Positions 3,641 through 64,000 of a stretch of DNA of 64,000 nt are shown here, in pieces. The notes under the pieces are model-generated. The model saw nothing but the letters and a program-made list of their open reading frames with translations. It had not been told where the DNA came from and did not search any database. A program made the translations under genes and the position numbers. The stretch is from Chloroflexota bacterium (GTDB lineage: Bacteria > Chloroflexota > UBA11872 > VXOZ01), in the NCBI GenBank assembly GCA_965221905.1, contig OZ244922.1:3360001-3424000 (forward strand), written 5' to 3'. How positions within the stretch are numbered: the first letter of the stretch is position 1; each line of letters starts with the position of its first letter.

Positions 3641-5511
3641 AGGGCAAGACCTTGCGTTTCCAATAGCAGAATGAAGAGCGCAAGCAAGGCAAGCATGGCT
3701 ATGGCAATGTAGTAGCGCCTTTCCGCCGCCGCGGACGTCCTGCCAAGGAACGTCAGGCAGCGACCCAAGAGCACAAGTATGCCGTTTGGCGGTACCAGCA
3801 GGCGGTCCGCAGCGCCGCCGATGGCGCGTGTCATGGATACCAGTTGGCGCCGATCCCGGGGGTGCATGCGCCGCAAGAGCATTACTGCTATCACACCGAT
3901 ACCACCCACCAAGGCGGTAGAAGCAGCGCTAAACACTAATAGTGTAGACCAAGAGAATATCGCTTGATCCGGCATTGCGGCATGGCTGATCGTTGTGACT
4001 GCCGGCCACACGAGCACAGAAAACCGCCACTGCAACACAGCCATGACAACTCCTCCCGCCACCAGCAGCCACGCGAGGTTTCCTTGATCGAGCAAGGCGT
4101 CTCGACGCCGCACAGAGGTCAACGGAGGATTTACGAACAGCCGCTGCATCCAACGCCCGAAGGTGACGACGGTTGTGATGCCGAACAGGATGATGAGGGC
4201 TTGCAGCGGAATGGCCCAGGCCTCTCTCTCTACTGCGGTAAAGAGGAATGAACGCGAAGCGGCGCTAAGCGGGAGCACAACTCCGGCTAACGCCGCAATG
4301 CCGATCAAGACGACAACCGCCGGCAAGGCCCAAAGAGCGCGCTGGCTCTGGCGGTGAATTGCCAAGAGTGACGGTCCCGCTGCCGCCACGAACGCCATAC
4401 CGACGGTGCCGCTGAGGAGTATCAGCGCCGCTCCGGCCATGGCTTGATAGGTCCCAATGGCAACCGCCACCGCGATAAGTCCGGCGTGACCGATCCAGTT
4501 TACGGCAAGAAGCGAGGCTAGCCTGCCCATCGCAAGCATTGCGGCAATTGAAAGCGCCAAACTCAGTCCGCCGACAATCAGCAGCGGATTCGACCACGGT
4601 ATGAAGGGATCAGGCCCGGCGAGCACCAGGAAGCGCGCAATCACGTACGTGGTTCCGAGCAGCATGATCCCGGCGACATTGGCGTAAATAGGCGCCAGAT
4701 GGCTGCGCAATGAGGCGGCCCAGCCGTGAAACGGCGGCCAACTTGCTCGCGCCGCCACCGCGGCCAACACTAGGCCGACTACCAACGCATCGAACACACC
4801 GGTGGGAATGTCGCCGTAGAGGTACTGATCGCTCCGGCGCGAGATAATGAGAATGGCCGCGAGCAGACCGTAGCCTGAAAAGTGGCTGACCATGAGCAGG
4901 CGCACCGCGGACGCACTTACCTGCGGGCGTTCCTCCCGAGGCAAGACGGCCAGGAAGTAGCTGGTCAAGCCCAGGGCTTCCCAAAATACATAGAGAAAGA
5001 GCAGGTTCTCCGAGAGCACCAGGCCTCCATAGGCACAGAGCGTGAGCAGCACGAAGGCGTAGGCCCTGCCCATCTGGTCCCGCGGCAGGTGGGCCGCCGG
5101 CAGTATCCACAAATGGCACAGAATTGCAGCCGCTCCCAGCCAGAGGAAGAGTATGCTCACGGAGTCCAGCCGGAAGGCCAGCACAATCGAGTTGTTGAGC
5201 AGCGAGAGCCAGGTGCCGACTTCCACTTCCAACGGGGTATCGGGACGAATCGATGCGTAGATGCTGATCTGTGCCAGGAGCCCGGCGACGGCAACGGTCG
5301 CGACAATAGGATAGACCGTAATCCACGTGTTAGATAGGCGTAGCAACACCACGAGGGGTCTTGTCCAACGCCAGCGCAGCAACCGCTGCTGCAGCCACGT
5401 GCTTCCGCGCACAACGAAGTCAGCACCGATGAGCAGCACACTGAGGATGAGGAAAATCGCCGCCGGCCCGTATAACCAGGGCAAAGGGGCATTGACTAGG
5501 AGATCCTGCAC
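3637..5511 (-). CDS. Proton-conducting membrane transporter subunit (NuoL/MrpA/HyfB-like)
   Basis: LAFRLDSVS, SENLLFLYVFWEALGLTSYFL and PPFHGW motifs. Confidence 0.8.
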   Translation of the reverse strand: MQDLLVNAPLPWLYGPAAIFLILSVLLIGADFVVRGSTWLQQRLLRWRWTRPLVVLLRLSNTWITVYPIVATVAVAGLLAQISIYASIRPDTPLEVEVGTWLSLLNNSIVLAFRLDSVSILFLWLGAAAILCHLWILPAAHLPRDQMGRAYAFVLLTLCAYGGLVLSENLLFLYVFWEALGLTSYFLAVLPREERPQVSASAVRLLMVSHFSGYGLLAAILIISRRSDQYLYGDIPTGVFDALVVGLVLAAVAARASWPPFHGWAASLRSHLAPIYANVAGIMLLGTTYVIARFLVLAGPDPFIPWSNPLLIVGGLSLALSIAAMLAMGRLASLLAVNWIGHAGLIAVAVAIGTYQAMAGAALILLSGTVGMAFVAAAGPSLLAIHRQSQRALWALPAVVVLIGIAALAGVVLPLSAASRSFLFTAVEREAWAIPLQALIILFGITTVVTFGRWMQRLFVNPPLTSVRRRDALLDQGNLAWLLVAGGVVMAVLQWRFSVLVWPAVTTISHAAMPDQAIFSWSTLLVFSAASTALVGGIGVIAVMLLRRMHPRDRRQLVSMTRAIGGAADRLLVPPNGILVLLGRCLTFLGRTSAAAERRYYIAIAMLALLALFILLLETQGLAL

Positions 5512-60826: not shown

Positions 60827-61708
60827 ATGGATGACGTAATTCTGGAAACGGCGCTCCCCATACCCCTGTTCGCGCGCGGGAAAGTGCGCGACATGTACGA
60901 TCTCGGCGACCGGTTGCTGATCGTCACGACCGATCGCATTTCGGCCTTTGACGTGGTGCTGCCGTTGGGGATTCCTGAGAAAGGCCGGGTGCTCAATCAA
61001 CTCTCTGCATTTTGGTTCCAGCGCATGGGACACCTCATCCCAAACCACCTCATCACCACAGACGTAGCGGCATACCCGGCTGCACTGCAGGCCGACCGTG
61101 AAATGCTGGCGGGGCGCAGCATGCTAGTGCGCAAAGCAGAGCGGATCGATGCCGAGTGCGTGGTGCGGGGCTATCTCGCGGGTACCGGCTGGCGCGACTA
61201 CGTACGCACCGGTGAAGTCTGCGGCCACAAACTGCCACCGGGTATGGTGGAGAGCCAGGAGTTTTCTGAGCCCATCTTTACGCCCGCTGCTAAGGCCGAG
61301 ACCGGCCACGACGAGAACATTTCGCGCACAGAACTGGCCTCGTGTATCGGCACGGAGCTCGCGGCACGCCTCGAAGAGGCATCGCTTGCCATCTACAACT
61401 TCGGGCGCGCAGAGGCCCGAAAGGCCGGCCTGATCGTGGCTGATACGAAATTCGAGTTCGGCCTGTGCGGAGACGAGCTAATTCTGATCGACGAGGCATT
61501 TACGCCGGATTCGTCGCGCTACTGGGATACTGACATCTACGAGCCCGGTCGTCCCCAGCCGAGCTACGACAAAGAATTCGTGCGTGAGTGGCTGCGCCAG
61601 AGCGGCTGGAACATGGAACCCCCGGCCCCCATGCTACCGGACGAAATCGTGCAGAAGACGAGCGAGAAATACCAAGAAGCCCTGCGCCGCATCACGGCGA
61701 TTCCCTAG
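60827..61708 (+). CDS. purC: Phosphoribosylaminoimidazole-succinocarboxamide synthase
   Basis: GKVRDMY, TDRISAFD, ECVVRGYL, ADTKFEFG, TPDSSRYW, SYDKEFVR. Confidence 0.95.
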   Translation: MDDVILETALPIPLFARGKVRDMYDLGDRLLIVTTDRISAFDVVLPLGIPEKGRVLNQLSAFWFQRMGHLIPNHLITTDVAAYPAALQADREMLAGRSMLVRKAERIDAECVVRGYLAGTGWRDYVRTGEVCGHKLPPGMVESQEFSEPIFTPAAKAETGHDENISRTELASCIGTELAARLEEASLAIYNFGRAEARKAGLIVADTKFEFGLCGDELILIDEAFTPDSSRYWDTDIYEPGRPQPSYDKEFVREWLRQSGWNMEPPAPMLPDEIVQKTSEKYQEALRRITAIP

Positions 61709-61738: not shown

Positions 61739-62194
61739 TTACAGAATGTGTAATCTGCGCATTGTCCACTTACAAATTGAGTGCCAGACGTATTTCCACA
61801 ATACCGGTGATGTTGCGTCTTTCACTATGCAAGTGCCCAGGCCAATGACTCCGCCAAATTCCTCTGCCTTCTTGTAGCGGTCCTGGATTCGTATTCTTGT
61901 GATCCGCTCTTCAGACATGGCTGGTGCCCACTCAACCTTATTGCGTTTGATCCAGTAGTGGGATCGACACGCAATGCTCCAGTTACCAATTGACGGCTGA
62001 AGAGAAACGGACTTGCCGTCGAAGGTCATTTGCCAGTCAGTAGGGTCTAGGGGCGTGACTACTTCGATCCCGCAACCGCAACAACACTTGTGGACTACTG
62101 TTGCGAAAGGAATTGACACGTACAGTACACCCTCGACTAGGTCTTCAGGGATGAAATGAACGAACTCGTGGAAGAGAGAGTTGATTCGAGTCAC
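61739..62194 (-). CDS. DUF6527-like protein
   Basis: GVLYVS...HKCCCGCG..VVTPL..DW...SLQPSIGNW..ACRSHYWI; GTGA overlap with the upstream gene. Confidence 0.85.
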   Translation of the reverse strand: MTRINSLFHEFVHFIPEDLVEGVLYVSIPFATVVHKCCCGCGIEVVTPLDPTDWQMTFDGKSVSLQPSIGNWSIACRSHYWIKRNKVEWAPAMSEERITRIRIQDRYKKAEEFGGVIGLGTCIVKDATSPVLWKYVWHSICKWTMRRLHIL

Positions 62195-63363
62195 GTTTGG
62201 TTCTCGTTGATCAGACTGTTACCATCTATCTCGTAATAGCAAGAGTGCTCACTCTCTAGGTCTGTATAGAATCCCATGAGCTTTTTCCACTTGATCACAG
62301 CCAAAGCTGCATTCAAAGCGTTGAGATCGGCAATCTGAATGTTGCGTAAGTATTCATTCTCGCCATTTTCATCTGAGAACGGTATGGTCGAGTGAATGTG
62401 GCTGCGTTCGTCAACTGTACTTGTTGTAACTCTCAACACGCCAAGCAGTGAACCGTCTACTTCGTTCACCCCCATCCCTGCATCTATGAATGGCACGCCG
62501 AACTCACACAGCTTCTCAACCACGAGTCTCCTGCTAAATCCCCTATCGACCGCTAGAAAGACAAAATCCATATTGCGAAGCCTATCAATTGTCGATTCTT
62601 CAAGGAAGTCATGGGCGAAAATGCGGTTCCGCATCTGAGAATAAACGTTGCAAAAGTACTCGGCTTTCTGTGGCGCCTTTACCAGGGTCTCCAAAGACGG
62701 CGCTCCGGGTGAGCGAAACGCGTTATGCTGCCCAAACCTGTCACCATCGAATAGATGGATTTCTTTCACGGGCGTCTTAGCTACTAGGTCAAGAATGTAT
62801 GAGCCAGTGCCCCCCAGTCCAACAATCGCTACTGCGCCGATGGCAAGTTTATCGGTCACAGCGACGATGCCAGATCGGCTCGACGCCGTATCAATATACT
62901 TAAACACCGAGTCGTCACCTTGAGGCTCGACAATCGAGAAGGTTTGGATCTTCAAGTTAGGATTGATGGATAGAGCGGGCCCAGAAACGATATGCGCGTA
63001 GGTGGTCATCTTCTCGTAATAGTCGTGGTACCCTTCACTTGGCTTGCTTGAAAACGTATGGTCAATCACTAGACCACTAGCTAGCTCCCTGCGGGTGCTG
63101 GAGTTATGGATCTGCGTTAGTGGACGTCCCTCTTGGTCGCAAGGCATCTCTCCGGCGAACATCACAACATGAGTACTCGGTCTTGCTGTGACATTGCCTG
63201 CTAACGACAATTCTGCAACCAAAGTGCCTCGGGAAATGTTGCGCTCGCTCGTGACGTAAGGGATGCCTCTTAATAGAAGATGGCCGGATCGGATCTCAAC
63301 TTCGTGCCCTTCGCCTTGAAGCCGACTGAGGTCCGGGCTAAGACTTATCAGTGATTGTGACAT
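62191..63363 (-). CDS. E2-like (DUF6791-type) domain fused to ThiF/E1 adenylyltransferase
   Basis: N-terminal LLLRGIPYV...HVVMFAGEMPC...FSSKP..GY.DYYEKMTTY; C-terminal VGLGGTGSYILD, LFDGD, HNAFR, DFVFLAVD, PFIDAGMG. Confidence 0.88.
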   Translation of the reverse strand: MSQSLISLSPDLSRLQGEGHEVEIRSGHLLLRGIPYVTSERNISRGTLVAELSLAGNVTARPSTHVVMFAGEMPCDQEGRPLTQIHNSSTRRELASGLVIDHTFSSKPSEGYHDYYEKMTTYAHIVSGPALSINPNLKIQTFSIVEPQGDDSVFKYIDTASSRSGIVAVTDKLAIGAVAIVGLGGTGSYILDLVAKTPVKEIHLFDGDRFGQHNAFRSPGAPSLETLVKAPQKAEYFCNVYSQMRNRIFAHDFLEESTIDRLRNMDFVFLAVDRGFSRRLVVEKLCEFGVPFIDAGMGVNEVDGSLLGVLRVTTSTVDERSHIHSTIPFSDENGENEYLRNIQIADLNALNAALAVIKWKKLMGFYTDLESEHSCYYEIDGNSLINENQT

Positions 63364-63592
63364 TAAAGATTGTTCCTTTCTGAATCTTTACCTTTTGGTC
63401 AGGAAAGAGCCGCCCATTTGGTGGTCTACCCGCGCCGTCGCGATAGGTGACAGTTATCTCGATATACGGACCCGATGGCACTGGATCGTAGGCGAGTAAG
63501 ACGACGACGTCGAAAGATATTTCATCAGAATTGACTACCTTCTTGCGGCCGTTCACGATAATCTGTACTTTTTCCTTTTCGTCAATCATCAT
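63338..63592 (-). CDS. Single-domain Multi-ubiquitin-type ubiquitin-like protein ending in DKS
   Basis: IIVNGR...ISFD.VV.LAY...TVTY...VKIQKGTIFNVT.TDKS; AAGGAG RBS. Confidence 0.85.
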   Translation of the reverse strand: MMIDEKEKVQIIVNGRKKVVNSDEISFDVVVLLAYDPVPSGPYIEITVTYRDGAGRPPNGRLFPDQKVKIQKGTIFNVTITDKS

Positions 63593-63600
63593 TAGACTCC

Positions 63601-63703
63601 TTGCAATGTTGCAAAAACAATTATCAGTACCATATGTGGTACACTTTCAATCTACACTGTGCGTACTGCCCGTGTCAACCCAAAATGGTACTTGTACCGT
63701 TTT
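63601..63703. promoter_or_regulatory. Divergent promoter region with palindromic operator candidates
   Basis: ttgcaa-tg-ttgcaa (63601-63614), gtacca-tatg-tggtac (63627-63642), aaaatggtac-tt-gtaccgtttt (63682-63703). Confidence 0.6.
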
Positions 63704-63719
63704 AAGTACAGGAGGTTTT

Positions 63720-64000
63720 ATGGCTGCAGGTAAGATAGAGCTTGGTGACCTAGGCCGTCTTGTCGCGGCTGAGCGGGATCGACGCGGCCTAAGTCTTCGC
63801 GAAGCGGCAAGTGCGATTGGAATTCCCTTCAACACCCTGGCGCGAGTGGAAAAGGGACACGTGCCTGACCTTCCAAAGTTCAAGAGGCTCGTGGAGTGGT
63901 GTGGTGCCGATATAAACCAGTTCTTTGAATGGCAGGAGAAAGCTGCGTCGACAACAGACATTATCGCTGAACACCTTCGATCTGATCCAAGTCTGCCTGC
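63720..64000 (+). CDS. XRE-family HTH transcriptional regulator (runs off the window)
   Basis: Not in the ORF track. AGGAGG RBS, then MAAGKIELGDLGRLVAAERDRRGLSLREAASAIGIPFNTLARVEKGHVPDLPKFKRLVEWCG...; no stop before the window end. Confidence 0.88.
   Translation, partial: MAAGKIELGDLGRLVAAERDRRGLSLREAASAIGIPFNTLARVEKGHVPDLPKFKRLVEWCGADINQFFEWQEKAASTTDIIAEHLRSDPSLP

Follow-up and report, generated by a model that had tools for sequence, protein, structure and literature searches.

Does the compact gene cluster that follows purC in a 64,000-nt stretch of a Chloroflexota genome (assembly GCA_965221905.1, contig OZ244922.1, positions 3360001-3424000; hereafter, the window) encode an intact pathway of bacterial ubiquitination-like (Bub) conjugation, and by what switch would it be controlled? 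Among the bacterial relatives of ubiquitination, Bub pathways have diverged the furthest, and it is in two enterobacterial examples that their chemistry has been elucidated. A Type II Bub (6E.2) operon encodes BubA (a ubiquitin-like protein, Ubl), BubBD (an E2-E1 fusion) and BubE (a DUF6527 protein), usually without a JAB gene (PMC11601596). At a probability of roughly 0.85, we read the locus as an intact, compact Type II Bub operon with a short-form CapH/CapP-like switch, whose mechanism would be carried over from the E. coli and Citrobacter systems. The gene set, conserved residues, folds, predicted BubA-BubE interface, operators, purifying selection and cassette-like insertion are what the locus itself displays. 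An earlier note on this DNA had compared the layout with Bub-type operons, and indeed the gene set and the tested catalytic marks of BubBD match Type II Bub (PMC11601596).

The Ubl, the E2-E1 fusion and the DUF6527 protein are encoded in the Type II order (Table 1), and a Prok-JAB profile has no match in the window, its two matches in the genome lying at 3157426 and 1626677. All Pfam matches of BubA, BubBD and BubE exceed the curated cut-offs, and NCBIfam PRK06153.1-4 spans BubBD residues 1-390 (4.9e-167); this end-to-end match fixes the bubBD start codon. The stop codons of purC and bubE are separated by 30 nt, and the genes overlap by 26 nt (bubA/bubBD) and 4 nt (bubBD/bubE). The three overlapping genes, their protein families, their distance of 30 bp from the purC stop and the absence of a JAB gene from the window, all reported in the earlier note, are thus borne out.

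This gene order recurs among related loci. BubBD relatives number at least 7992 cluster representatives at E <= 1e-10 and were confirmed in at least 567 stretches of a species-genome collection, the best 80 of which (L005-L084) were used for the locus comparisons below. These 80 derive from Chloroflexota, Actinomycetota, Cyanobacteria, Proteobacteria, Bacteroidota, Acidobacteriota, Planctomycetota, Patescibacteria and archaea; bubE adjoins bubBD in every one, and the order bubA-bubBD-bubE is found in 78, the other two being cut at a contig end. Among the matches listed, the closest BubBD proteins (68-74%) are from Dehalococcoidia and Chloroflexota metagenome-assembled genomes. In Table S1 of Ye et al., 'Type II Bub' occurs 405 times (about once in each row), and no Chloroflexota-type string among those searched is present, although other genus names could occur there (PMC11601596). 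In the genome studied here, a second DUF6527 match marks a second, more diverged Bub-like operon with its own capH/capP pair. Across phyla, bubA and bubBD retain their 26-nt overlap, which hints at translational coupling: by our own reading of alignment coordinates, bubA ends at 5026 and BubBD residue 1 aligns at 5001 in 51/78 loci.

BubBD carries the residues expected of a Type II enzyme in both of its domains. Across an alignment of 39 N-terminal domains drawn from many phyla, H65 and S105 never vary (39/39), and K107 and C75 are present at 90% or more, giving BubBD the UBC-like E2 domain with Ser, His and Lys that is typical of Type II Bub. The E1 domain contains the nucleotide loop GLGGTG at residues 182-187, in agreement with the intact GxGGxG described earlier, together with R217 (33/33 in the E1 alignment) and Y338 (32/33; in the genome's second copy, the one exception, the Tyr is shifted by one column). 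Cysteines of BubBD are found only at 75, 238, 286 and 375, leaving none in the crossover loop (none between 286 and 375), where Tyr replaces Cys as in other Type II Bub E1 domains. In BubBD of E. coli ZDHYS365, the corresponding residues are S106 of the E2 domain, accompanied by an invariant Lys and His, R219 for adenylation and Y342 of the crossover loop (PMC11601596); these equal S105, R217 and Y338 here, and the E. coli Type II operon has the same gene order, E2-E1 fusion, lack of JAB and TDKS tail.

Predicted folds place both parts of BubBD next to Bub proteins. The best Foldseek match of the full BubBD model is Citrobacter BubCD (9eav_B, 4.4e-11), followed by UBA5, MccB, ThiF and Cap2. 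In an exhaustive VIA structural search, the model of the E2 domain (residues 1-155; pLDDT 89, pTM 0.83) matches Citrobacter BubB first (9eav_D; Z 9.2, root-mean-square deviation 3.5 A, 120/128 residues), and the next rows, UEV and E2 proteins and Cap2, lie well below it at Z 4-5.7; an E2-like N-terminal domain is thereby favoured. The aligned ranges (model 1-132, BubB 236-361) would bring S105 near S333, H65 near D299 and K107 near H335, a placement obtained by arithmetic from the ranges and not by residue-level alignment. The system that provides these matches, that of Citrobacter sp. RHBSTW-00271, is a Type I operon (BubAB, BubCD, BubE; 9ea4, 9ea5, 9ea8, 9eae, 9eav) with which the present locus would share the cysteine-free Tyr/Ser chemistry, as well as the DUF6527 partner. 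In Type I, fusions join Ubl to E2 and JAB to E1, JAB cleavage leaves a Ubl with Gly at its end, and the E2 triad is Asp/Ser/His (PMC11601596). By contrast, the locus here is without JAB, its Ubl is translated with Ser as the last residue, and it has a His/Ser/Lys triad.

Cys75 of BubBD (codon 63139-63141) lies 10 residues after His65, and 10 residues is also the distance from the HPN histidine to the catalytic cysteine in canonical E2s. By our own reading, two of the 39 E2 domains are exceptions, with His and Arg at this position. As a candidate for the essential E2 nucleophile Cys75 was rejected, being absent from the diverged clade to which the second operon's fusion belongs (the BubBD2 clade), where His and Ser are kept in 15/15. 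Inactivity of the E. coli BubBD S106A mutant also counts against this candidate (PMC11601596). In view of these alignments, Cys75 is probably not catalytic.

BubA is a beta-grasp Ubl with the C-terminus of its family. The profile of a 23-member BubA alignment matches residues 142-222 of PDB 9cd2, Ubl3 of E. coli ZDHYS365, at E 8.9e-17, indicating homology to a solved beta-grasp protein, and the TDKS terminus is common to BubA and the 9cd2 chain. E. coli Ubl3 has three domains, whereas the 84 residues of BubA form a single domain that matches only domain 3; BubA thus lacks the two domains linked to dimer and Ca2+-dependent filament formation in the accessible part of PMC11601603.

The terminal Ser is found in 22/23 aligned BubA homologues and in 77/78 bubA open reading frames (ORFs) upstream of BubBD genes in other genomes; the only exception, in L061, is short and may be miscalled. 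The idea that a Ser-ending BubA is a local oddity was consequently rejected, Ser being the family norm. The terms 'C-terminal serine', 'terminal serine' and 'S222' are absent from the main text of either Bub preprint, and supplements or journal versions may discuss the residue; the other Ubls described in the Bub papers end in Gly (PMC11601596). It is conceivable, if rather doubtful, that Type II Bub Ubls are ready-made with an obligatory C-terminal Ser (T-D/N-K/R-S) instead of Gly. If Ser84 were adenylated and joined to targets, an unusual terminus would be added to the Tyr/Ser oxyester relays, and the two diverged operons of this genome might be two orthogonal, separately switched tagging systems, a five-gene cassette having spread without mobility genes.

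For BubE, an alignment of 29 homologues reveals invariant C37, C41, C76, S64, S78 and H79 (29/29), with C38, C39 and S68 at 90% or more. Compared by spacing only, C37/C39/C41/C76 and H79 fit C57/C59/C61/C99 and H102 of Citrobacter BubE, in which S92 and H102 form a dyad (PMC11601596); His79 is three residues after Cys76, as is His102 after Cys99. Complex prediction of BubE residues 1-100 with BubA gave a score of 0.64, as compared with 0.01 for the best control. The mark passed by this score is reached by 58/80 solved complexes and 2/110 mismatched pairs, counts that are rough, with our own alignments used. Between separate runs, 95% or more of the contacts are shared, and the pLDDT of the partner does not fall below 81. 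In the predicted interface, the BubA tail (residues 75 and 77-83) faces BubE residues 43-48 and the 67-74 loop, which carries S68. A phmmer search of the PDB found no sequence relative of BubE and, as there is no BubE structure in the PDB, the score does not come from recall of a complex already solved. The predicted complex supports BubA-BubE binding.

The 127-nt spacer between bubA and the divergent capH-like gene holds the bubA promoter and two 16-bp inverted repeats of one geometry (candidate operators O1 and O2; Table 1). The capH-like gene has an HTH_31 match (2.6e-08 to 3.3e-08) and crosses the window end, as expected from the divergent XRE gene of the earlier note; its likely start is ATG 63720, preceded by an AGGAGG box, and a TTG at 63531 is not favoured. 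A metallopeptidase partner, also anticipated just beyond the window, begins 177 nt past its end and overlaps capH by 14 nt, with the M78 match covering residues 76-172 of 184. This is the arrangement of CapH+CapP, in which an HTH repressor gene adjoins an HExxH M78 gene at the operon promoter. CapH+CapP pairs adjoin 168/544 Bub operons (PMC11601596). Among the 80 related loci, capH+capP are found in at least 11, the peptidase alone in at least 2 and an HTH gene alone in at least 1; these are lower bounds, as the CapH query was taken solely from the second operon.

Within the spacer region, 3 promoter-like sites were found compared with 3.1 expected in shuffled sequences. The close clade with capH comprises nine loci (this locus, L005-L010, L017 and L049; the L017 sequence is incomplete). 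An O2-type inverted repeat, varying in its spacer, lies between the promoter and bubA in 9/9, and by our own reading a site of O1 geometry (GT[AG][CT]N-N6-NG[GA]TAC) follows the complement of the capH ribosome-binding site in the nine loci and an exact TTGACA occurs at the same place in 8/9. Half-sites are conserved among these loci, and the six-base spacers vary. As judged from these alignments, the conserved inverted repeats are the phylogenetic footprint of a putative dimeric repressor site.

In CBASS, according to the accessible parts of the sources, single-stranded DNA switches CapH+CapP on and CapH is cleaved, which has been established for the CBASS-associated proteins (10.1101/2022.04.27.489752; 10.64898/2026.05.16.725639). 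The first of these describes, as here, a divergent HTH gene overlapping an M78 HExxH gene at the promoter, and palindromic operators. CBASS CapP consists of three domains (peptidase, HTH-like linker and GAF), whereas the 184-aa peptidase here leaves no room for a GAF domain; the CBASS operator is a 22-bp site upstream of -35, whereas here one site is downstream of -10 and the other at the capH ribosome-binding site (10.1101/2022.04.27.489752). The aligned peptidase ORFs, 15 in number (the genome's two and 13 from related Bub loci), are all similarly short (181-218 aa). Deinococcus DdrO/IrrE are kin of CapH+CapP. A phmmer search of the PDB with CapH yielded no useful match. As a separate observation, Cys122 of the peptidase, within FL[ST]C[DN] between HELAH and a downstream Glu-rich motif, is conserved among the nine nearest of the Bub-linked short peptidases and not among more distant ones; it might be a 'cysteine switch' like that of CBASS CapP.

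Table 1. Features of the Bub locus (window coordinates) and of the second Bub-like operon in the same genome (L004 coordinates; L004 is contig 126001-142000)
Feature	Position	Strand	Description	Profile match
bubA	63338-63592	minus	84 aa; single beta-grasp ubiquitin-like protein ending TDKS	Multi_ubiq 6.6e-13 (Pfam)
bubBD	62191-63363	minus	390 aa; E2-like DUF6791 (residues 1-~140) and E1 adenylation ThiF (~160-390)	DUF6791 5.6e-56, ThiF 4.7e-12 (Pfam)
bubE	61739-62194	minus	151 aa; putative Zn-binding Ser-His peptidase, amphipathic C-terminal tail	DUF6527 8.5e-26 (Pfam)
Candidate operator O2	63627-63642		GTACCATATGTGGTAC (GTACC-N6-GGTAC); 6 nt downstream of bubA -10 box	
bubA sigma-70-like promoter	TTGACA 63678-63673, 18 nt, TAGATT 63654-63649	minus	10/12 consensus matches	
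Candidate operator O1	63694-63709		GTACCGTTTTAAGTAC (GTACN-N6-NGTAC); abuts capH ribosome-binding site	
capH-like XRE/HTH repressor gene	63720-64190 (window end 64000)	plus	156 aa	HTH_31, HTH_3
capP-like M78 metallopeptidase gene	64177-64731 (outside window)		184 aa; HELAH at residues 97-101	Peptidase_M78 1.1e-17
purC	60827-61708	plus		SAICAR_synt 9.2e-72
Second operon, capP-like	L004 4578-5174	minus		
Second operon, capH-like	L004 5178-5576	minus		
Second operon, Ubl	L004 5630-5887	plus	ends EHVS	Multi_ubiq at cut-off
Second operon, E1 fusion	L004 5877-7064	plus	N-terminal domain not recognised by Pfam (DUF6791)	
Second operon, DUF6527	L004 7083-7499	plus		

From these features and from the ATP-dependent Ubl conjugation via oxyesters known biochemically in the E. 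coli and Citrobacter systems (PMC11601596), we infer the chemistry and the inducing signal, together with the target and biological role, as follows. CapH bound to the two GTACN-N6-NGTAC operators flanking the bubA promoter would keep the operon off. On a stress signal (probably phage infection or DNA damage) the M78 peptidase would cut CapH, and the operon would thus be stress-inducible. The E1 domain of BubBD, with GLGGTG and Arg217, would adenylate the C-terminal Ser84 of BubA. The Ubl, as an oxyester, would then be handed first to Tyr338 in the crossover loop and next to Ser105 in the E2 domain, with His65 and Lys107 helping, and on to a target lysine. BubE, as a Zn-stabilised Ser-His peptidase using Ser68 or Ser64 with His79, would grip the BubA tail and remove conjugates.

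Several results weigh against this reading. Confidence in the model of full-length BubBD is middling (pLDDT 75), and Foldseek gave no match of the E2-domain model at E <= 0.001, the best being the non-canonical E2s Atg3 (0.08) and Atg10 (0.09). Of the two nucleophile candidates in BubE, S64 is invariant, and S68, which fits the published spacing best, is Thr in the genome's second copy. The peptidase matched no PDB chain by phmmer; as it also has no room for a GAF domain, single-stranded DNA sensing is not simply transferable to it. No Bub operon has been reported as protective against phage in PMC11601596 or in the accessible part of PMC13373217, so that an anti-phage role of Bub operons, this one included, stands as a proposal. 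In the same sources, defence is proposed and a stress response is equally open for the Bub family.

The history of the site bears on this choice of roles. From purC to the next conserved sequence, a distance of 3139 nt, the GC content is 0.499, as compared with 0.583 for the genome, which confirms the AT-richer islet of the earlier note; 0.31% of 3.1-kb genome windows have a GC content as low. Five genes are packed in this 3.1-kb cassette. DUF6791 is present in 2/16 other species of the genus and in 0/24 other genomes of the class searched. One of these species, G007, carries all five genes at the corresponding site with 77% DNA identity. Between the two copies, the ratio of nonsynonymous to synonymous divergence (dN/dS) lies at 0.11-0.18 in each of the five genes, and dS at 0.9-1.4, as compared with 0.92 for purC. 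All five genes are under purifying selection, and the cassette may be as old at the purC site as the species split.

The empty site is represented by two further species, G010 and G011, in which the 3' end of a convergent gene lies ~30-45 nt beyond purC. In the source genome ~95 nt of the convergent gene are left (64848-64943 in window numbering, outside the window), and the reduction of this gene means that the region has been rearranged. The ~95-nt sequence follows purC within ~1 kb in 14/16 other species of the genus, and a second copy is at contig 896748-896817. A tRNA or small RNA was rejected as the identity of this element: ARAGORN found no tRNA, Rfam gave no match at E <= 1, and by alignment it is a convergent protein gene's 3' end. 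In the source genome, capP is followed by ~600 nt without a long ORF and then by pnp, dapB, a Uma2 gene and asd. Only in this genome and in G005 are purC and pnp neighbours, which likewise points to rearrangement. The neighbourhood of the cassette contains no tRNA (ARAGORN), no Rfam match, no integrase and no mobility genes, and no direct repeats were seen at its borders by eye. Unlike the E. coli ZDHYS365 operon, the cassette is neither at a tRNA gene nor accompanied by mobility genes.

The strongest alternative, which we hold to be a credible minority view, assigns the same machine to a DNA-damage or general stress response in which host proteins would be tagged for repair, growth arrest or membrane remodelling. 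The Bub authors themselves raise this reading, having found no protective operon (PMC11601596; PMC13373217, accessible part). It would also suit a cassette that sits between purC and a remnant upstream of pnp with no defence gene alongside, and the purC-like dS in the comparison with G007 fits long residence over rapid turnover. On the other hand, the cassette is patchy within the genus and class and low in GC, the second Bub operon adjoins a NotI-like restriction-modification pair and a DndB-like gene, and CapH/CapP-type regulators accompany known defence systems in the accessible part of 10.1101/2022.04.27.489752.

A second alternative is that the locus serves biosynthetic adenylation of the ThiF/MoeB/MccB type, for sulfur carriage or peptide modification, and not protein conjugation. 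The E1 part does have ThiF, MccB and PaaA among its structural matches (1e-8 to 2e-9), and the small protein ends in Ser, not Gly-Gly; yet BubCD is the best structural match of that part, an E2-like domain with invariant Ser and His is fused to it, there is neither a rhodanese domain nor a biosynthetic neighbour, and the E. coli homologue with a TDKS Ubl forms ATP-dependent adducts in vitro (PMC11601596). We consider biosynthetic adenylation very improbable. Equally implausible is a decaying, non-functional remnant of a horizontally acquired cassette, to which the low GC, the lack of mobility genes and the truncated convergent neighbour in a rearranged region might point, given that five intact frames of family-typical length, all conserved residues, the promoter, the operators and the low dN/dS have been retained.

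The Type II Bub reading also separates the locus from two other systems of similar composition. Type II CBASS Cap2 has the same E2-then-E1 fusion architecture, and it is among the structural matches of the E2-domain model (Z 5.2) and of the full BubBD model (Foldseek 1.7e-08); PADLOC 'E1-E2' models match weakly and in the E1 part only (best 3.5e-07), and PADLOC 2.0.0 has no model matching BubA or BubE. Cap2 works through cysteine thioesters, conjugates the CD-NTase and not a Ubl, and pairs with JAB (PMC11601596); such genes are not present here. The Bil (bacterial ISG15-like) operon likewise encodes a Ubl, E1, E2 and peptidase, and Bil has proven conjugation to a phage protein (PMC11601596, accessible part). 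In contrast to the locus here, Bil as described there has separate E1 and E2 with catalytic cysteines, JAB, no DUF6527 and a Gly-terminated Ubl.

As an intact Bub operon, the locus would be a minimal example, with a single-domain Ubl and five genes in 3.1 kb. It joins a known family and leaves the overall picture of that family unchanged. The readable promoter-operator layout and the natural empty site in sister species make it a convenient small system for the study of Bub targets and of the switch.

The second Bub operon (L004:4578-7499, equal to contig 130578-133499) lies beside genes for a NotI-like endonuclease, a D12 methyltransferase and a DndB-like protein (Table 1). The Ubls of the two operons are 25% identical. 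The N-terminal domain of the second fusion is covered by only ~13 of the best 150 representatives, and in these domains (the BubBD2 clade) the Tyr is kept next to an R/N-N-x-Q motif, in addition to the His and Ser noted above. By these alignments, the second fusion's N-terminal domain appears to be a rarer clade keeping His, Ser and Tyr.

Three observations concern the surroundings of the cassette; coordinates with the prefix L001 become window coordinates by adding 61000. In G005, the closest species, a gene for an 858-aa protein with leucine-rich repeats, judged by eye, lies between purC and pnp (L094:1886-4462); its presence at the cassette site makes the purC-pnp spacer look variable. The pnp leader region (L001:4140-4290) contains a run of repeat units with GTTTCA/TGAAAC that match no Rfam family. 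About 6 kb beyond the cassette, L001:10312-16000 holds minus-strand genes that have no Pfam matches except for an SU10 adaptor-like protein, which suggests a prophage or tail-like element.

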